Translations under genes and position numbers: made by a program
Shown here: piece after piece, positions 2,817-57,342 of the stretch
How the letters are laid out: the number at the start of each line of letters is the position of its first letter
Numbering within the stretch: the first letter of the stretch is position 1
The notes under the pieces: model-generated
What the model saw: only the letters and a program-made list of their open reading frames with translations
Database searches by the model: none
Told to the model about the DNA's origin: nothing
NCBI GenBank assembly: GCA_900768545.1
Contig: CAAGDD010000003.1
Location: 82,097-146,096 of the forward strand
Origin: Clostridia bacterium
Lineage (GTDB): Bacteria; Bacillota; Clostridia; Christensenellales; UBA1242
Direction: 5' to 3'
Length of the DNA stretch: 64,000 nt

Positions 2817-3449
2817 ATGAAAGAATACAAAAATGTCGTTTTTAGACGTCCAAAAGATGCTGGGATAGCGCCCGTTTGGGACAAAAATTGCAAAGTTTTA
2901 ATGCTCGGCTCTATCACCGCAACTGACGGAATGAACAAAGGTTTTTATTATGCAAGCAACAAAAATCAGTTGTGGCAACTTTTGGATATTGTATTAAACA
3001 CAAACTGCTTTTCGGCGTTGAAAGAAAAACTCAAAACAAACTTCGAAGACTTTAAAACAAACAAAATTTCGCAAGCAGAATTTGAACAAAACAGAGAGCA
3101 AATTAGAAGTCAATTTTCTGTCGAACTTTTAAAAAGAAAAATTGCAATTTGTGATGTGTTTTGTGAATGTTATTTCAACAACAATTCGTCAATGGACATT
3201 GATATAATTTTAAACAACAAAGATTTTCCATTTAAGACCAGCAAAGAAATTTTGCAAAACATAATTGACAATTCACAAATAAAAACTATCGTCGTAAACA
3301 GTAAGTTTGTCGAGTCACAACTTCGAAAAATGAAACTTTCTGGCGATTTTGAAGTCAAATATGTTATCAGTCCGTCACCAAGACGCGGCTCGATTGACAA
3401 AAAAATTGAAAATTGGAAACAAGTTTTCTCATTGTTGAAAGACATATAA
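2817..3449 (+). CDS. UDG-superfamily DNA glycosylase, DNA-deoxyinosine glycosylase-like
   Basis: VLMLGSITA...GFYYASNKNQLWQLL resembles the LILGSFPS...GFYYGHPxNxFW motif of the hypoxanthine-DNA glycosylase family, recalled from memory. Confidence 0.5.
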   Translation: MKEYKNVVFRRPKDAGIAPVWDKNCKVLMLGSITATDGMNKGFYYASNKNQLWQLLDIVLNTNCFSALKEKLKTNFEDFKTNKISQAEFEQNREQIRSQFSVELLKRKIAICDVFCECYFNNNSSMDIDIILNNKDFPFKTSKEILQNIIDNSQIKTIVVNSKFVESQLRKMKLSGDFEVKYVISPSPRRGSIDKKIENWKQVFSLLKDI

Positions 3450-5378: not shown

Positions 5379-7391
5379 ATGTCAAAAAAATTAAAACCTT
5401 TGATTATTTGGGTGCTCGTTTTTGCGGCTATCGGTTATGCTGGAGGTGCAGTGTTGCACTATTTCACACAACATCCAGCAAGTTTTGTTGACTCTTTGAT
5501 TGTTGACTATGCTTACATCGGTGCGGGAATTGGTGCAGCCATTGGATTTTTGTTTAGTTTCGCTGGAAAGAAAGAAAAGAAAGACGAAAAGAAGCCAGCC
5601 ACAACTGGAAAGACCGCTGACGGCGAAGAAATGGATTTGGCGACAAACGCACACTGGTATAATTTGAAAAACTTGAAGACCGATCTTGTTTCAGGAAAAA
5701 TCATTTCAACAACTTGGAACGAACTTCCACAACTTCAAACTTCTGGCGTTGTGTTTAGAAATCAAATCGAAGACGGAAAATACAAAATTGGAATGAAAGA
5801 CGAATATCACTGTTTGGTTATCGGGACAACCGCTTCCGGAAAAACAAGTGCTTGTCTTGTTCCTACAATCCGCATTCTTGGACACACCGGCGAAAAACCA
5901 AATATGGTTATCACCGATCCAAAGGGAGAACTTTTTGTTCAAACAAGCAAGATTATGGAAGATGAAGGTTATCGTGTCGTAACGCTCAATCTTCGTGACG
6001 CGTTTTCATCTACTCGCTGGAATCCACTTGACCACGCTTATGAAGTTTATCACAAAGGCAAAAACTGCAAAAACAACATTCAAAAATACACAGGAAAGTC
6101 AAAACCTTCTCAAATGGGTTACAAAGAAATCCCTGGTGAAGAATATGGCGAAGAATGGTATATTTTTGAAGGTGTGGCTTATCCTACAATCGAAAAATTG
6201 AAGATCGCAGTAAATAGTGCTGAACAAATTTATTGTGATGCTGCACAAAACGAACTTCGCGAAATTTGCAACACCATTGCTCCAAAGTCACAAGCACAAG
6301 ACCCAACATGGGAAGAAGGCGCGCAAGACTATCTTTATGGCTGCGCACTTGCAATGCTTGAAGACAGTTTGAATCCAGAACTTGGAATGACCAAAGAAAA
6401 ATTCAACTTCTTCAACTTGTATCGTATCGCCACCTATCGTGACCCAGATGCTGACGCTCCATTTGAGACAATCAGAAGATATTTGCTTCAAGGACGAGAT
6501 GCCGCAACATCTGTTGTCCCAAACTTGACTTCGGCGGTAATTAACAACGCTCCAAACACAACCAAATCATACATCGGGGTTTTGAACGGCAAAATCTCAT
6601 TTATGAACGACAAAGGTATCGCTTATCTTACATCTCAAAGCGACATTGATTTTGGAACATTTACAGACAAGCCAACAGTTTTCTATCTTATTATTCCAGA
6701 TGATCGTGAAGAGCGTCACAACTTGGCAATTTTGTGCATTTCTCAACTTTACAAGCGTCTTGTTGACAAAGCAAATTCTGTCGGCGGAAAGCTTAAAAAA
6801 CACACTTACTTCATTTTGGAAGAATTTGGTAATATGCCAAAGATTCCAAAGTTTGCCGAAATGATCACAGTTTCGCGTGGAAGAAACATTTTGTATGAAA
6901 TGGCTGTTCAATCTTACACCCAGCTTGAAACAAAATATGGTGACAAAGATTCGAAAACAATTATCGCAAACTGCAATGCTCAAATCTATCTTGGAACAGA
7001 CGACCAAGCAACACTTGATGCATTTTCGAAAAAGTGCGGCGAAGTTCAACTTGTTTATCAAGAAACAAACACAAGCACTTCGAAAAACGACAACGGCAAA
7101 GACGGAAAGAGCACAACAGACAGCAAGAGCGTTCAAAGAACAACTCGCCCACTTATTTCGGCTTATCAACTTGGTCAAATTGAAAGAAATGAAGCTATCG
7201 TAAAATTGTTTAGATTTGACCCTATGAAGATTAAACAAACGCCAAACTATCAAACACCTTTCTTCTATAAGAAAGACGCAGACATCAACACTATTTCAAC
7301 AAACAGTTTTGATGAAGTCGGGGTCTATTATGATATCAAACTTCGAAATCAAAAAATTTTGAAATCTTCAAGATTTAGCGATGACTTTTAA
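5379..7391 (+). CDS. type IV secretion coupling protein (VirD4/TraG/TraD family ATPase), orphan
   Basis: Start at ATG 5379 (GGGAGA upstream). Two N-terminal TM helices, Walker A VIGTTASGKTS, DPKGE, RWNPL, and Walker-B-like YFILEEFGNMPKIP. Confidence 0.75.
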   Translation: MSKKLKPLIIWVLVFAAIGYAGGAVLHYFTQHPASFVDSLIVDYAYIGAGIGAAIGFLFSFAGKKEKKDEKKPATTGKTADGEEMDLATNAHWYNLKNLKTDLVSGKIISTTWNELPQLQTSGVVFRNQIEDGKYKIGMKDEYHCLVIGTTASGKTSACLVPTIRILGHTGEKPNMVITDPKGELFVQTSKIMEDEGYRVVTLNLRDAFSSTRWNPLDHAYEVYHKGKNCKNNIQKYTGKSKPSQMGYKEIPGEEYGEEWYIFEGVAYPTIEKLKIAVNSAEQIYCDAAQNELREICNTIAPKSQAQDPTWEEGAQDYLYGCALAMLEDSLNPELGMTKEKFNFFNLYRIATYRDPDADAPFETIRRYLLQGRDAATSVVPNLTSAVINNAPNTTKSYIGVLNGKISFMNDKGIAYLTSQSDIDFGTFTDKPTVFYLIIPDDREERHNLAILCISQLYKRLVDKANSVGGKLKKHTYFILEEFGNMPKIPKFAEMITVSRGRNILYEMAVQSYTQLETKYGDKDSKTIIANCNAQIYLGTDDQATLDAFSKKCGEVQLVYQETNTSTSKNDNGKDGKSTTDSKSVQRTTRPLISAYQLGQIERNEAIVKLFRFDPMKIKQTPNYQTPFFYKKDADINTISTNSFDEVGVYYDIKLRNQKILKSSRFSDDF

Positions 7392-23577: not shown

Positions 23578-23638
23578 TTTTGTTATTTTTCTTTATTTTT
23601 TTTATTTTTTTATGTATAATTTGTATAAAGGAAGAACT

Positions 23639-24460
23639 ATGGGAAAAATTATTGCTTTTGCAAATCAAAAAGGTGGGGTTGGAAAAACAACAACCTGTAT
23701 CAATGTTGCTACTTATATGGCGCTTATGGGAAAAAGAGTTTTAATTTTGGATATTGATCCACAAGGAAACGCGACCAGTGCTGTTGGCATCACAAAAACC
23801 AAAGATCTTAAGACTATTTATGACCTTATTGACGGTCAAAGTTCCTATGATGAAGTTATACAGCCTACTATTGTTGAAAATTTGTACATAATTCCTTCGA
23901 CAGTTGATTTGGCTGGGGCTGAAGTTGAGCTTATTCAAATTCCGCAAAGAGAAAAAGTTATCAAAAGAATCCTTGATGAGATTAAAGAAAGTTATGATTT
24001 CATACTTATCGATTGTCCACCATCACTTGGATTGATCACTGTAAACGCTTTAACGGCGTCTGACAGCGTTTTGATACCTATGCAATGTGAATTTTTCTCA
24101 ATGGAAGGCATTACTCAACTTATGAACACGATTCGATTGATTAAATATCATTTGAATCCAGACCTTGAAATTGAAGGCGTTGTTATGACAATGAAAGACA
24201 AGCGTTCAAACTTCACAAATCAAGTTAGCAACGAAATTATCAAATTCTTCAACAAGAGCGTTTATTTGACAACCATTCCAAGAAACATTCGTTTGGCGGA
24301 AGCGCCAAGTCATGGCTTGCCAGTTGCGTTATATGATGCAAATTCGAAAGGTGCTGAAGCTTATTTGAGTTTAGCTGAAGAAATTTTGAAAAGAAATAAA
24401 ATGCCTTATACAAAAATTTCGAAACTTCGTAAAATAAATTATAAAGGAGATAAGTTATGA
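23639..24460 (+). CDS. parA: chromosome partitioning ATPase ParA/Soj
   Basis: Start moved to ATG 23639 (AAAGGAAG upstream). Deviant Walker A: NQKGGVGKTT. Confidence 0.9.
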   Translation: MGKIIAFANQKGGVGKTTTCINVATYMALMGKRVLILDIDPQGNATSAVGITKTKDLKTIYDLIDGQSSYDEVIQPTIVENLYIIPSTVDLAGAEVELIQIPQREKVIKRILDEIKESYDFILIDCPPSLGLITVNALTASDSVLIPMQCEFFSMEGITQLMNTIRLIKYHLNPDLEIEGVVMTMKDKRSNFTNQVSNEIIKFFNKSVYLTTIPRNIRLAEAPSHGLPVALYDANSKGAEAYLSLAEEILKRNKMPYTKISKLRKINYKGDKL

Positions 24461-25392
24461 TCAACAAAGGGTTAGGAAGAGGACTTGATGCGTTATTTGG
24501 CACGTATGAAGGTGATGTAAGTTATAATAAAATAACTAAACCAGCAGAAACTAATACAGGCGTTTTGGAAGTAGATATTAACAAAATTAAACCAAATCCA
24601 AACCAACCAAGAAAAAATTTTGATGAAGATGCATTAAAGGACTTGGCTGCATCTATTAAAGTTCATGGCATTGTTCAACCAATCGTTTTAAATAAAAATG
24701 CTGACGGAACATATATGATTATCGCCGGTGAAAGACGTTGGAGAGCTGCGAATTTGTGTGGTCTTAAAACTGTTCCAGCCATCATCAAGGATTATACAGA
24801 AAAGCAAATTAAAGAAATTAGTATTATTGAAAACTTGCAAAGAGAAGATCTTAATCCTGTTGAAGCGGCAAAAGCGATTAAAGAACTTATGGACGAATAT
24901 GGACTTACACAAGAAGCTGTGTCAGAACGTATTGGAAAAAGTAGATCGAATGTAGCAAACACATTAAGATTGCTCACACTCTACCCAGCAGTGCTTGATA
25001 TGATCGAAAAGGGCAAAATTTCAGCCGGACATGCTAGATGTTTGGTTGTTGTAGAAGATGCAAACGAACAATTAAAACTCGCAAATGCAATTGTAAGCAA
25101 AAACTTAAGTGTTCGCGACCTTGAAAAGGCTATTAAAGCATATACAAATCCTGCGAAGAAGGTTGTTGTAAGAGAAGAACAATCTTTGGAACTTAAAGAA
25201 CTTATTAATCAAATGCAAAAAACATTTGCAACAAAAGTTTCTGCAATTGGTAATGATAACAAAGGGCGCATCTATATTGATTACTACACTCGTGACGATT
25301 TGGATAGAATTTCAGAACTTTTAGATTTACTCAATAAAAAAGAAATGACATTAAAAGATTTGCAAAATTACAACAGACGTAATCATAAATAA
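24457..25392 (+). CDS. parB: chromosome partitioning protein ParB/Spo0J
   Basis: ATGA overlap with parA. GERRWRAA, IENLQREDLNPVE and an HTH region. Confidence 0.9.
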   Translation: MINKGLGRGLDALFGTYEGDVSYNKITKPAETNTGVLEVDINKIKPNPNQPRKNFDEDALKDLAASIKVHGIVQPIVLNKNADGTYMIIAGERRWRAANLCGLKTVPAIIKDYTEKQIKEISIIENLQREDLNPVEAAKAIKELMDEYGLTQEAVSERIGKSRSNVANTLRLLTLYPAVLDMIEKGKISAGHARCLVVVEDANEQLKLANAIVSKNLSVRDLEKAIKAYTNPAKKVVVREEQSLELKELINQMQKTFATKVSAIGNDNKGRIYIDYYTRDDLDRISELLDLLNKKEMTLKDLQNYNRRNHK

Positions 25393-25524: not shown

Positions 25525-25540
25525 TGTTTCACGTGAAACA
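25525..25540. promoter_or_regulatory. parS site 1 (perfect palindrome TGTTTCACGTGAAACA)
   Basis: Exact match to the chromosomal parS consensus tGTTNCACGTGAAACa. Confidence 0.85.
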
Positions 25541-25863: not shown

Positions 25864-25879
25864 TGTTTCACGTGAAACA
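25864..25879. promoter_or_regulatory. parS site 2 (TGTTTCACGTGAAACA)
   Basis: Identical 16-mer; the flanks AAA..TTT extend the palindrome. Confidence 0.85.
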
Positions 25880-26068: not shown

Positions 26069-26084
26069 ATGTTTCACGTGAAAC
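26069..26084. promoter_or_regulatory. parS site 3 (TGTTTCACGTGAAACA)
   Basis: Identical 16-mer. Confidence 0.85.
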
Positions 26085-26177
26085 ATTTTAAATATAATAT
26101 TCTTAAGATAGTGCTTGAAACAATAAAATTTGCTGTAGCGCGTATCAAAAATAGCTAAATTATTGTTCAAAATTAGT

Positions 26178-26229: not shown

Positions 26230-26772
26230 ATGAATAAATTAGAAGGAACAAAAACAGAACAAAATTTAAAAACTGCGTTTGCGGGCGAAAGTCAAGCTAG
26301 AAATAAATACACATATTACGCTTCAAAAGCTAAAAAGGACGGGTTTGAACAAATCGCTGCAGTATTTACTGAAACCGCAGACAATGAAAAAGAACATGCA
26401 AAAATGTGGTTTAAAGAACTTCATAATGGAGAAGTTCCTGACACTTTGACAAATTTGCTTGATGCAGCAGCTGGTGAAAATGCAGAATGGACTGACATGT
26501 ATAAAAAGATGGCTGAAGAAGCTCGAGAAGAGGGCTTCAGTGATCTTGCTTACAAATTTGAAGCAGTTGCTCAAATTGAAAAAAGACACGAAGAAAGATA
26601 TAGAAGATTGGCAGACATTTTGAAAAACAAAACTGTATTCCAAAAATCTGAAAAGAAAGCATGGATATGCCGCAATTGTGGCCACGTGTATATTGGAGAA
26701 AAAGCACCTGAAGTATGCCCTGTTTGCAAGCACCCACAATCATATTTTGAAATTTTAAACGAAGAATTTTAA
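26230..26772 (+). CDS. rbr: rubrerythrin
   Basis: Diiron four-helix motifs ([21 protein letters not shown]) plus C-terminal rubredoxin-like CRNCG...CPVC. Confidence 0.9.
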
Positions 26773-26924
26773 TTTTGTATAGTTATTATATTATAACATA
26801 ATATATTTATTATAATAACAAAATCGATTTGACAAAAATTTAATTTTTAACATTAAAAATATTGACAAGTGAACGCAAAATGTGTTATGATAAGAGCACA
26901 AGGAATGTATTACTTGCAATATTT

Positions 26925-27014
26925 GGAGAGTTACTCAAGAGGTCGAAGAGGCTCCCCTGCTAAGGGAGTAGGGTTGTAACAGGCCGCGAGAGTTCGAATC
27001 TCTCACTCTCCGCC
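26925..27014 (+). tRNA. tRNA-Ser (anticodon GCU), CCA encoded
   Basis: Acceptor GGAGAGT/ACTCTCC, anticodon stem CTCCC/GGGAG with loop CTGCTAA, long variable arm, T arm GAGAG-TTCGAAT-CTCTC. Confidence 0.9.
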
Positions 27015-27021
27015 ACAAAAG

Positions 27022-27067
27022 AACTGTACGCACCCTCGTGAAAATGAGAAAGGCGTGCAGTTTTTTT
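27022..27067 (+). terminator. terminator after tRNA-Ser(GCU); duplicated in inverted orientation at 12552-12617
   Basis: ACTGTACGC...GCGTGCAGT stem followed by T7. Confidence 0.7.
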
Positions 27068-27211
27068 ATTTTACACGACACCTTGGCATTCCAACACCTT
27101 TCACATATAAAATCACAAATTAAAAACACTTTACATATTAATGGTATCTATATTAAACGCTGACCTTCCATTCAAAATTTAACCATTAATGTTTATATAT
27201 TTAAAAAAAGG

Positions 27212-27240
27212 TTGACAAAAAAGAATACATGTGCTATTCT
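27212..27240 (+). promoter_or_regulatory. promoter of the asnA leader
   Basis: TTGACA (27212-27217), 17-nt spacer, extended -10 TGcTATTCT (27232-27240). Confidence 0.55.
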
Positions 27241-27263
27241 CTTAAAAAATATAGGGGAAATAT

Positions 27264-27347
27264 ATGTTTAAACTTTTCAACAACAATAACAATAATAATT
27301 CAAACGCATATAATATGAGTTTCATTTTTGTTGTTGAAAATATATAA
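27264..27347 (+). CDS. candidate asnA leader peptide (27 codons, 7 consecutive Asn codons)
   Basis: GGGGAAA RBS-like sequence, then ATG 27264. Translates to MFKLFNNNNNNNSNAYNMSFIFVVENI*. Asn codons AAC/AAT occupy 27279-27299; 10 of 27 residues are Asn. Confidence 0.55.
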   Translation: MFKLFNNNNNNNSNAYNMSFIFVVENI

Positions 27348-27373
27348 TCCATTTTAAACACAATTAAATCAAC

Positions 27374-27402
27374 ACTCTCTTGAAACTCAAGAGAGTTTTT
27401 TT
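27374..27402 (+). terminator. attenuator terminator between leader ORF and asnA
   Basis: ACTCTCTTGA-AAC-TCAAGAGAGT followed by T7. Confidence 0.7.
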
Positions 27403-27594
27403 ATACTAGATTAGTTTTAAAGATAAGCCCAAAAAGTGCATTTTTTTATTTGGAGGTTGTTAATATGAAAAAAATAAATGCCGTAGCTGGCGAAGATTAA
27501 AATATTTTTTAAATGGTTTTGATAATTGTCTATACAAAAAATTATTAGATCGTCTACTCGACGAAATAAACATGTTAAATAAAGGAGAATAACT

Positions 27595-28593
27595 ATGAAA
27601 TTTATAAAAGAAAGATACACCGAAATAAGTGTTTTAGAAAAACAAAAATATATAAAACTTATTAAAGACAAATTTGAAAAAGAACTTGCAAAAGCATTAG
27701 GTCTAACAAGAATTTCAGCACCATTGTTAGTCACAAAAGAATCAGGTCTTCAAGATGATTTAAGTGGAACCGAAAGAAAAGTTTCTTTCGACATCTTGAA
27801 AGACGGAAAAGAACTTGAAATAGTTCAAAGTCTTGCAAAATGGAAAAGATTTGCACTTAAAAAGTATGGTTTCAAACCACACGAAGGTCTTTACACAGAC
27901 ATGACTGCAATTCGAAGAGATGACCAAATGGATGAAACTCACTCAATTTACGTTGATCAATGGGATTGGGAAAAAATTATTTTAAATAAGGATCGAACCC
28001 TCAACTATTTAAAAAAGACCGTAAAATCAATAGTAAAAGCTATAATAAGAACAGAAGATTACCTTAAAACAAAAGGCTTCAAAGAAAAAAGTTGTTTATG
28101 TCAAGATGTTTTATTTATTACAAGTCAACAACTTTTAGACCAATATCCAACTCTATCACCAAAAGAACGCGAATACGAAATCACAAAAAAATACAAAACA
28201 GTTTTCATCATGCAAATTGGAGACAAACTAAGTAATGGTCTACCTCATGACTTACGTGCTCCAGATTATGACGACTGGTCACTAAATGGAGATCTATTAT
28301 TTTATCATGAAGTGTTAGACATTGCACTAGAAATATCAAGCATGGGCATTAGAGTAAATAAACAAACATTATTATCCCAACTGAAAAAAGCAAACAACCT
28401 AGATCGTTTACAATATGATTTTCACAAAGCTATAGTTGAAGAAAAACTTCCTTTAACAATAGGCGGCGGCATTGGACAAAGCCGTTTATGTCAGTTACTG
28501 CTTGAAAGAGCACATATTGGAGAAGTGCAAGCATCATATTGGGATAAAGAAAATATTAAAAAGTGTAAAGAACTTGGCATAGATTTATTATAA
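27595..28593 (+). CDS. asnA: aspartate--ammonia ligase (asparagine synthetase A)
   Basis: Class-II-synthetase-like AsnA. N-terminal region ...IKLIKDKFEKELAKALGLTRISAPLLV...GLQDDLSG and C-terminal GGGIGQSRLCQLLL. Confidence 0.9.
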   Translation: MKFIKERYTEISVLEKQKYIKLIKDKFEKELAKALGLTRISAPLLVTKESGLQDDLSGTERKVSFDILKDGKELEIVQSLAKWKRFALKKYGFKPHEGLYTDMTAIRRDDQMDETHSIYVDQWDWEKIILNKDRTLNYLKKTVKSIVKAIIRTEDYLKTKGFKEKSCLCQDVLFITSQQLLDQYPTLSPKEREYEITKKYKTVFIMQIGDKLSNGLPHDLRAPDYDDWSLNGDLLFYHEVLDIALEISSMGIRVNKQTLLSQLKKANNLDRLQYDFHKAIVEEKLPLTIGGGIGQSRLCQLLLERAHIGEVQASYWDKENIKKCKELGIDLL

Positions 28594-55830: not shown

Positions 55831-55941
55831 TGTCAAACAAGAAAACACTTCGCTTTTGCGGAGTGTTTTTTTATCACAATGAAAGTTAAACATAATTATA
55901 AACAAAACAAAAAAAACTGACATTTCTGTCAGTTTTTTTTA

Positions 55942-57342
55942 TTAAAATTTGATTTTATCTTCAACATATTTAGCCACATCTGCGATAGGAATTCTTTCTT
56001 GTGCCATGCTGTCGCGTTCACGAACTGTTACACAGCAATCTTCCAAGGTGTCAAAGTCGATTGTGACGCAAAAAGGCGTTCCAATTTCATCTTGACGACG
56101 ATAACGCTTCCCGATTGAGCCAGCTTCATCATAAGTGCAAGAGAAATGTTTGATAAGGTCGCCATAAACTTCGTCAGCCTTGTCGCTCAATTTTTTAGAA
56201 AGTGGCAAAATTGCAACTTTGTAAGGAGCAAGGTGTGGAGCGAGTTTCAAAACAACTCTTGTGTCGTTTTCACCGACTTCTTCTTCGTGATAAGCATCAC
56301 AAAGCACGGTCAAAAACATTCTGTCAACGCCCAAAGAAGGTTCGATAACATAAGGAATATATTTTTCACCAGTCACTGGGTCTGTGTATTCAAGATTTTC
56401 TTTTGATTCGTTTGCGTGTTGTTTAAGGTCGTAGTCTGTGCGGTCAGCGACGCCCCAAAGTTCTCCCCAGCCGAATGGGAACAAATATTCAAAGTCAGTT
56501 GTTGCTTTTGAATAGAAGCAAAGTTCGTCTTTTGAGTGGTCGCGAAGTCTTAAATGTTCTTCTTTAATGCCCATTGACAAAAGCCAGTTTTTGCAGAAAC
56601 TTCTCCAATAGTTAAACCATTCAAGGTCTGTGCCAGGTTCGCAGAAAAATTCAAGTTCCATTTGTTCAAATTCTCTTGTTCTAAAAATGAAGTTTCCTGG
56701 GGTGATTTCGTTTCTAAATGATTTTCCAATTTGACCAACGCCGAGAGGCATTCTACTGCGGGTTGTTCTCAGAAGATTTTTAAAGTTTACAAAAATTCCT
56801 TGTGCTGTTTCTGGACGAAGATAAAGTGTGTTTGCGCTTTCTTCTGTTACACCTTGAAAAGTCTTAAACATCAAGTTAAACTTTCGAATAGGTGTGAAGT
56901 CACTCTTTCCGCAGATAGGGCACTTAACATGATTTTCGGCAATAAACTTTTCCATTTTTTCATTGTCAGTTTCCCAGCCGGCAGTGTTTATGTCGAGATT
57001 TTTTTCTTTGATATAGTTTTCAATAAGTTGATCGGCTCTGTGACGAGATTTGCAGGCTTTGCAGTCCATAAGTGGGTCTGAGAATCCGCCAAGGTGACCA
57101 GACGCTTTCCAAACGCGAGGGTTCATCAAAATCGCACTGTCAAGTCCGACGTTGTATTTGCATTCTGTAACAAACTTTTGCCACCAAGATTTTTTGATAT
57201 TGTTTTTAAGTTCAACGCCCAAAGGACCATAATCCCAAGCGTTTGCAAGTCCGTCGTAAATTTCACTTCCGGCAAAAACAAATCCGCGATTTTTGCAAAG
57301 AGCGACAAGTTTATCCATTGTTAATTGTTGTTTTTCTTCCAT
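55942..57342 (-). CDS. glyQS: glycine--tRNA ligase (homodimeric GlyQS type)
   Basis: [24 protein letters not shown], class II motifs, C-terminal anticodon-binding domain. Preceded by a Gly T-box. Confidence 0.95.

Follow-up and report, generated by a model that had tools for sequence, protein, structure and literature searches.

Leader-peptide transcription attenuation is known to sense tryptophan (Trp), histidine (His), phenylalanine (Phe), leucine (Leu), threonine, isoleucine/valine and cysteine. In hisL of Escherichia coli and Salmonella, seven consecutive codons for the end product are combined with alternative 1:2, 2:3 and 3:4 hairpins and an intrinsic terminator; what is sensed is how far the cognate tRNA is charged. 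In trpL, which carries two Trp codons, a ribosome stalled in segment 1 frees segment 2, a lack of translation leads to termination, a ribosome at the stop codon masks segment 2, and the choice between the structures is kinetic. The gene asnA, coding for aspartate--ammonia ligase, also responds to asparagine (Asn) in E. coli, but there the regulator is AsnC, a DNA-binding protein acting at the promoter and not a cis-acting RNA. Here we describe the region upstream of asnA in a stretch of 64,000 nucleotides (nt) from an uncultured, low-G+C gut bacterium of the Clostridia (assembly GCA_900768545.1, contig CAAGDD010000003.1, positions 82,097 to 146,096; hereafter the window). This region very probably encodes a classical ribosome-mediated leader-peptide transcription attenuator, through which asnA responds to the availability of Asn-tRNA(Asn).

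The leader of the window resembles hisL in its seven consecutive end-product codons, its three mutually exclusive pairings, its intrinsic terminator and, in our reading, its use of cognate tRNA charging as the signal. It differs in the amino acid and in the host, and has no sequence or Rfam similarity to hisL; moreover, its two-helix antiterminator brackets the left arm of the terminator, its stop codon lies beyond segment 2, and a second conserved open reading frame (ORF) follows the terminator. The proposed mode of action is that of trpL as regards stalling, the outcome without translation and the kinetic choice. The present leader, however, carries 7–10 Asn codons, and segment 2 would be masked by a ribosome at the stop codon only in the short variants of three relatives (L001, L002 and L173), not in the window.

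In Firmicutes and Mollicutes, classical leader peptides have been found, as here, by comparative genomics upstream of the cognate biosynthetic or synthetase gene, where they take the place of the T-boxes that prevail in this phylum. Examples are the His leader of hisS/hisZ paralogues in bacilli (PMC2965389), a Leu-rich attenuator peptide for the ilv genes of Staphylococcus aureus (PMC5794164) and the Phe leader uORFC-13-1 before aroF in Acholeplasma (PMC8632094). These concern other amino acids, genes and lineages, and none of them Asn or asnA.

Rfam 15, run on positions 26700–27800 with E-values up to 10, returned only the neighbouring tRNA, all other matches having E-values of at least 0.016 and scores far below the gathering scores. 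Run on the whole window at gathering score, it returned only tRNAs and no amino-acid leader family; the T-box model RF00230 had no match in either search. No match was found in Pfam or NCBIfam for the leader peptide or for the peptide of the second upstream ORF (sORF2, see below). In the literature, no Asn leader or asnA attenuation was found, although most subscription journals lie outside the coverage of that search and the absence is not proof. The 'zipper' attenuator of pLS20 was considered and is unrelated. These searches agree with the remark of a first-pass annotation, made from the letters alone, that an Asn leader is missing from the commonly annotated families; a conserved, Asn-specific leader apparently has not been described so far.

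The leader upstream of asnA

The regulated gene was identified as asnA by the NCBIfam equivalog TIGR00669 (333 bits; cutoff 293), as the first-pass annotation had it. The promoter, the 27-codon ORF with its seven Asn codons and the strong terminator with its T-run, which that annotation had also read from the sequence, all lie where it placed them (table 1). The sequence elements, their pairing potential, the gene identity, and the conservation and covariation reported in the next section are direct observations. The promoter matches the consensus at 10 of 12 positions and carries TG-c before TATTCT. It is followed closely by the short ORF, which has its own Shine–Dalgarno (SD) sequence and start codon, and the intrinsic terminator (T1) separates this ORF from asnA. 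Asn, the amino acid made via the downstream gene, accounts for 10 of the 27 residues. In the six frames of the window (34% G+C), the run of seven is the sole run of four or more Asn, and first-order Markov simulations gave an expectation of 0.03 for runs of at least five.

Three pairings compete within the leader. The first (1:2, termed P1, the anti-antiterminator) joins the strand of the Asn codons to the switch strand 2b. The complementarity claimed for it extends over 16 nt (27274–89 with 27325–40, 94%) around a perfect 13-nt core, and a pairing of the start-codon region present in the inverted-repeat listing (27265–72 with 27353–60) is also part of P1. The second (2:3) is the antiterminator, for which the first-pass annotation had proposed the pairing of 27316–24 with 27381–89. 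This pairing stands: it is perfect over 9 nt (100%) in the inverted-repeat listing and conserved with compensatory changes. The proposal was incomplete in that it lacked a second, inner helix (27330–31 and 27333–37 with 27369–75), separated from the outer one by a 5 × 5 internal loop that leaves most of the left arm of T1 unpaired. The third (3:4) is T1 itself. The pairings exclude one another, as the antiterminator uses positions 27374–75 and 27381–89 of T1, and P1 uses 27328–40, needed by the antiterminator. Since 2b pairs either with the Asn codons or in the inner helix, the partner strand of the Asn codons competes directly for the antiterminator; and since its other partner, 27369–75, is transcribed before the terminator, freed 2b could nucleate the antiterminator early and deliver segment 2a to the terminator loop.

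On folding, P1, the antiterminator and T1 were obtained as alternative structures with energies of −16.2, −14.1 and −12.9 kcal/mol, respectively. The 161-nt leader folds with a z-score of −4.2 (0 of 200 shuffles as good). The antiterminator duplex has −17.7 kcal/mol compared with −5.4 ± 1.7 in dinucleotide shuffles (0 of 2000 as good) and the 1:2 duplex −16.8 compared with −6.0 ± 2.3 (2 of 2000).

Nascent transcripts ending just before the right arm of T1 were folded either bare or with the second Asn codon covered by a 28-nt ribosome mask, a footprint size taken from general knowledge. In the 14 loci of the clade defined below, the two-helix antiterminator is the minimum-energy fold of 12 masked transcripts and P1 that of 13 unmasked ones. 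The minimum-energy fold includes T1 at all 14 when the transcript carries no ribosome or one at its stop codon. By these models, a ribosome stalled at the regulatory codons would mask segment 1 and leave segment 2 free, and the terminator fold would win when translation is unimpeded or absent. All the defining features of trp/his-type attenuation that can be tested on sequence, here with Asn as the amino acid reported, are thus present in the window, as first annotated, and are kept in 14 of the 14 loci.

We infer from these elements that the leader is translated, how ribosomes stall on it and how much they cover, that the folds compete kinetically, and how the cell responds, and we propose the following course of events. 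Transcription would start near 27247, about 7 nt after the −10 box, and the leader ORF would be translated while RNA polymerase proceeds. When Asn is plentiful, the ribosome would reach the stop codon (27345–47) and depart, or none would load; segment 1 (27265–86) would then pair with 27328–40 and 27353–60 to form P1, the apical hairpin (27302–22) would hold part of 2a, T1 (27374–96 and its seven T) would form, and the transcript would end near 27403. When Asn-tRNA is scarce, the ribosome would stall on the first Asn codons (27279 onward), covering roughly 27264–27310 and blocking P1. Freed 2b (27330–37) would pair with the newly made TCAACAC (27369–75), and this pairing would bring 2a (27316–24) onto 27381–89, a stretch of T1 that runs from the end of its left arm through the loop into the start of its right arm. 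The two-helix antiterminator would exclude T1, and the polymerase would continue into sORF2 and asnA.

Table 1. Features of the asnA leader unit, in window coordinates, and of two hairpins in related loci, in the coordinates of each locus.
Feature	Coordinates	Strand	Remarks
Sigma-70-type promoter	27212..27240	+	TTGACA 27212-17, 17-nt spacer, TG-n-TATTCT (27235-40)
SD AGGGGA of leader ORF	27253..27258	+	5 nt before ATG at 27264
Leader peptide ORF, 27 codons, MFKLFNNNNNNNSNAYNMSFIFVVENI	27264..27347	+	From the ORF list; stop codon 27345-47
Segment 1	27265..27286	+	27274-86:27328-40 and 27265-72:27353-60 form P1, anti-antiterminator
Sensor, seven consecutive Asn codons	27279..27299	+	From the ORF translation
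Small apical hairpin	27302..27322	+	From folding; predicted to sequester GUUU of segment 2a in the OFF state
Segment 2a, TGAGTTTCA	27316..27324	+	5' strand of outer antiterminator helix; pairs with 27381-89
Segment 2b, switch strand	27328..27340	+	Pairs with Asn codons (P1) or, via 27330-37, with 27369-75
TCAACAC	27369..27375	+	3' strand of inner antiterminator helix; abuts/overlaps left arm of T1
Intrinsic terminator T1	27374..27402	+	10-bp stem 27374-96, 3-nt loop 27384-86, T7 27396-27402
Decayed remnant of T2	27417..27447	+	Free energy -0.5 kcal/mol; no complementarity to T1 right arm
SD GGAGG of sORF2	27452..27456	+	From sequence reading
sORF2, MKKINAVAGED	27465..27500	+	Conserved core AATGCCGTAGCTGGCGA at 27477-93
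SD AAGGAG of asnA	27582..27587	+	From sequence reading
asnA (aspartate--ammonia ligase), regulated gene	27595..28593	+	TIGR00669
T2 in relatives	L162 2822-2842, L163 2686-2707, L167 ~2830-2851, L169 ~2843-2865, L170 2852-2874, L171 ~2782-2809, L081 2286-2311, L174 2785-2814		
sORF2 hairpin in relatives	L171 ~2915-2955, L174 ~2913-2950, L173 ~2891-2946, L002 ~2821-2867, L081 ~2414-2456, L167 ~2922-2956		

Conservation and covariation among related loci

The AsnA protein of the window has thousands of homologues, of which the best 120 are 73–99% identical and come from uncultured 'Clostridia'/'Eubacteriales' metagenome-assembled genomes of the gut. We compared 177 asnA loci, obtained from a genome scan, a metagenome scan and eleven exact-protein look-ups; the matches listed in the metagenome scan with AsnA included one close relative, L081. 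Fourteen distinct loci with AsnA at least 73% identical form the clade: the window, L162, L163, L164, L167, L169, L170, L171, L081, L173, L174, L176, L001 and L002. The near-identical strain L161 comes in addition to these.

All 14 loci have a promoter, an SD sequence with ATG, an in-frame Asn cluster and T1 upstream of asnA. The −35 box is TTGACA at the equivalent position (TTGACT in L002), all relatives have an SD-like purine tract ahead of the leader ATG, and the apical hairpin is also predicted in the core relatives. The leader peptides of the relatives (MFRLFNNNNNNNSNAYFMGFIFVVENI, MFRLINNNNNNNSNAYNMGFIFVVEKI, MFRFINNNNNNENNYTYNMGFIFVVEKI, MFRLFNNFNNNNSNAFNMGFIFVAENF, MFRLINNNNNNNSNTYNMGFIFVVESL, MIKLVNNNNNNNLNAYNYGFLFCC, MFRLINNNNNNNLNALTMGFIFVVGNNI, MIRLINNNNNNNLNALNMGFIFVVD, MFRFDFHNNNNNNSNAYSMSFIFVVE, MFRILNSNNSNNSNTRNQWVSF, MERLINNNNNLNHRT, MIKFINNNNNNNLKHIS and, in L176, MKRLINNANEILL) bring the range of lengths in the clade to 13–28 codons. 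The flanks of the unit cannot be aligned, and because the upstream genes vary between loci, the leader unit can be said to belong to asnA. A leader of this type is absent from all 157 loci whose AsnA is at most 64% identical; a relaxed filter (at least three Asn in five codons, an SD sequence and a terminator) revealed no weaker Asn leader among them, and L003 lacks a leader altogether.

A covariance model built from ten leaders recovers all 14 loci with 31–137 bits. Its search of 650 kilobases, including the rest of the window, yielded no credible further copy, in front of other Asn genes or elsewhere, the matches being plain terminators and antisense hits. Two matches, at 6417–6506 of L001 and at 55840–55975 of the window, were inspected and rejected.

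In the short leaders of L001, L002 and L173, the stop codon lies on or next to 2a, which is the trp arrangement, and a terminating ribosome covers 2a. In the long leader peptides, the C-terminal part (NMGFIFVV; 27312–27338 in the window) is reminiscent of the arrest peptide ErmCL (MGIFSIFVI). Since the short variants end before this point, the likeness most probably follows from the RNA constraint acting on 2a and 2b.

The stem of T1 comprises 13 aligned pairs in a model-guided alignment, 94.5% of them canonical, with double changes at 8 of the 13; none of 1000 column shuffles reaches this. For the outer antiterminator helix, the register of the 14 sequences was set by hand. Its 9-bp core is almost always canonical. 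One pair is A-U in the window and L174, G-U in six loci and G-C in six others, and the neighbouring pair is G-C, G-U or A-U. In L167 and L081, changes lengthen the helix while T1 stays paired, and L176 has GGAUUAU:GUAAUCC in place of GGGUUUC:GAAAYYC. Double changes occur at four pairs, the covariation score was reached by 7 of 1000 shuffles, and 81% of the pairs are canonical, compared with 37–55% in slid registers. In the inner helix, the strand TCAACAC is nearly invariant; CAACAC has become CAGCAC in L169, L170 and L173, with compensation in L173. The Asn-codon strand and 2b have changed together in L176 and L173, the re-coded leader of L176 having a compensating 2b. As judged from these alignments, the antiterminator pairing covaries moderately and the T1 stem strongly.

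These data bear on the reading that the leader is a functionless chance product of low-complexity, AT-rich sequence. At 34% G+C, AAT/AAC-rich and TTG/ATT-rich stretches do pair readily. Against this stand the shuffle and Markov controls, the presence of the unit at 14 of 14 loci between unalignable flanks, the covariation, and covariance-model matches of up to 137 bits that occur only upstream of asnA. Conservation at the sequence level effectively refutes this reading, which we consider to have next to no chance of being correct.

In another explanation, T1 would act constitutively, as a terminator or insulator that stops, for example, read-through from the upstream tRNA-Ser gene; asnA would be transcribed from a separate downstream promoter, and the Asn-rich ORF would be incidental or code for a small protein. 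A promoter-like match (TTGAAA-16-TATACT, 27380–27407) overlaps the loop and U-tract of T1, and promoter-like hexamers are common in this AT-rich region (16 found, 9.6 expected). This match is not conserved in the relatives, however, and is probably a by-product of the AT-rich sequence; in L176, only about 20 nt separate the end of T1 from the ATG of asnA, too few for a promoter. The tRNA-Ser gene already has a hairpin and T-run of its own (about 27030–27068). The leader and T1 accompany asnA at every clade locus although the upstream genes all differ, and covarying alternative pairings would have no role in a plain terminator. We hold the insulator explanation to be highly improbable.

The attenuator might also be read by something other than a ribosome. 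TRAP-type proteins bind triplet repeats, as in the trp system of Bacillus subtilis, and the (AAY)n tract could similarly be an RNA site for a trans-acting factor (a TRAP-like repeat-binding protein, a small RNA or a tRNA) by which P1 would be stabilised or prevented. Leader translation is a deduced step, and the AAY tract is conserved at the nucleotide level, including the wobble positions, in the core set. This wobble conservation is nevertheless accounted for by the pairing with 2b. Despite their range of lengths, all 14 leaders have an SD sequence and ATG at proper spacing, a frame open across the AAY tract and a stop before T1; the breaks in the Asn run are whole in-frame codons (S, F, E, A), and a stop codon on or next to 2a in the short variants makes sense only for a ribosome. 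The Rfam search of the region gave no T-box or other match at E-values up to 10. A trans-acting factor is therefore very unlikely as the reader of the tract.

Several points weigh against ribosome-mediated attenuation itself. Its basis is sequence comparison and computed folds. The antiterminator register of four divergent loci was set by hand, and the AAY/RTT repeats can pair in several registers, which inflates the apparent complementarity. Most pairs of P1 are invariant in the closely related core set, and for this reason P1 is uninformative on covariation. The masked transcripts of L162 and L170 do not have the antiterminator as their minimum-energy fold. In the window and nine other long-leader loci, the stop codon lies 3' of both 2a and 2b, so that 2a stays exposed while a ribosome terminates, and the OFF state therefore depends on P1 re-forming after release. 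Finally, the full-length equilibrium folds contain T1 at 14 of 14 loci, with or without the ribosome mask, and the switch is seen in the nascent-transcript folds alone. Because the terminator is always in the full-length minimum-energy fold, the switch must be kinetic (co-transcriptional), as in trp, where the terminator is likewise at least as stable as the antiterminator at equilibrium.

A second terminator and a second upstream ORF

In eight relatives, T1 is followed, ahead of sORF2, by a further good terminator hairpin, T2, with energies of −6.8 to −15.6 kcal/mol. In each of the eight, the right arm of T1 is complementary to the left arm or the loop of T2 and covaries with it: AGGGUG:CGCCCU in L162, AGGGUG:CACCCU in L163, GGAGUG:CACUCC in L169 and L170, AGAGUG:CACUCU in L171, and GAGAGUG:CACUCUC in L081 and L174. 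The energy of this pairing was reached by 0–40 of 1000 shuffles per locus. That T2 is a plain duplicate of T1 was considered and rejected, as in L162 and L163 its left arm matches the right arm of T1 (GGGUG:CRCCC) and not the left. Transcripts from 2a to the T2 loop were folded to represent the state in which segment 1 is occupied and the right arm of T2 is not yet made. The antiterminator together with a '4:5' hairpin is the minimum-energy fold at six of the eight loci, and the completed transcript gives T1 and T2.

This suggests, at the level of computed folds and for the relatives rather than the window, that one stalled ribosome could override two terminators by a relay. The antiterminator would free the right arm of T1, which would capture the left arm of T2, so that both terminators are defeated at once, whereas the basal leak would be multiplied down by the tandem arrangement.

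At every clade locus except L176/L177, sORF2, with a strong SD sequence, lies between T1 and asnA. Its first ten residues follow the pattern M-K/R-K-x-N-A-V/I-A-G-E/D in all 13 copies; its length (11–39 codons), its tail and its distance to asnA (16–154 nt) vary. The core motif AAYGCCRTRGCNGGCGA occurs exactly once per clade locus and once in the window, only upstream of asnA. No base-pairing partner consistent across loci was found for it, upstream or downstream. Regulatory arrest or sensor peptides of the ErmCL, TnaC and SpeFL type, a class for which sORF2 was considered, are conserved in their peptide sequence and not in codon content, and arrest the ribosome depending on ligand or context, with an effect on the next gene. 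Variable sites fall on 4 of 6 third codon positions and 1 of 12 first or second positions (p = 0.02), a pattern that favours a constraint on the peptide; a GCC...GGC hairpin is the alternative. GCC and GGC are invariant despite the 34% G+C of the genome, and could form a small RNA hairpin.

Asn codons occur within four codons after the motif in 10 of the 13 copies, with six in a row in L171 and L174. In six relatives (L167, L171, L081, L174, L173 and L002), a hairpin includes the 3' end of sORF2; its 5' arm is SD-like (e.g. UUUAAGGAG), and its 3' arm (e.g. CUCCUUAAA) could also pair with the SD region of asnA. In the window, sORF2 has a stop codon where the relatives have the Asn run, and lacks the anti-SD sequence. 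The sequences of the relatives hint at a second, translational tier of Asn control: in several of them, the sORF2 motif is followed by an Asn run of its own and by a decoy-SD/anti-SD hairpin, which could alternatively occlude the SD sequence of asnA. A regulatory peptide, a second Asn sensor and a small RNA hairpin are possible roles of sORF2.

Taken as a whole, a multi-tier device, with the T1/T2 relay in the eight relatives and sORF2 as a regulatory nascent peptide or upstream ORF giving a second input on asnA translation, is a speculative and rather doubtful proposal. No description of such relay wiring or of an sORF2-type regulatory peptide was found in the literature searched. If true, either would be an attenuator wiring or a regulatory peptide beyond the textbook mechanism.

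Genomic context and related regulation

The asnA of the window is a single gene, with a convergent peptidase U32 gene downstream; the ORF list shows no adjacent asnC-like gene. The tRNA-Ser(GCU) gene (26925–27015) lies about 200 nt upstream of the leader promoter. It was found with 54 bits in the local Rfam scan and also by ARAGORN, and was missed in the whole-window Rfam search at gathering filters. Further upstream, directly downstream of parA/parB-like genes (23612–25392), a 16-nt palindrome, TGTTTCACGTGAAACA, is present in three perfect copies (25525–25540, 25864–25879 and 26070–26085; 0.09 expected). It matches the Firmicute parS consensus, and the region is probably origin-proximal.

The relatives with AsnA 53–64% identical have either a T-box followed by asnS and asnA, or no leader. 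Among 20 distant loci scanned, eight carry a T-box about 1450 nt upstream of asnA (100–125 bits). These are L005, L010, L015, L016, L018, L019, L023 and L024, with AsnA identities of 54–60% and the T-box at about 1170–1575; in L018, an AsnRS-like gene lies between it and asnA. The T-box acts at the same locus, its output is also read-through of an intrinsic terminator, and its signal is presumably uncharged tRNA-Asn; unlike the leader peptide, it senses the tRNA directly, by RNA–tRNA pairing without translation. The gene order also differs, asnA being first in the clade of the window and asnS in the T-box loci. In L171 (3001–6180), the Asn leader heads an operon of asnA, a gene for a protein of 260 amino acids with no NCBIfam match, and asnS (NCBIfam asparagine--tRNA ligase, 595 bits). 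Because this operon runs into asnS, free Asn does charge tRNA(Asn) in the clade.

The T-box before asnS-asnA in distant relatives shows that the charging level of tRNA(Asn) is the signal selected for at the asnA locus. The leader described here would document that, at a single locus in the Clostridia, a leader peptide has cleanly taken the place of a T-box, and would provide material on the turnover of cis-regulatory RNAs. The 190-nt unit may be of use as a self-contained reporter of Asn-tRNA charging, and possibly for recognising, in gut metatranscriptomes, when uncultured Clostridia are limited for asparagine. With it, asparagine would join the amino acids sensed by leader-peptide attenuation.

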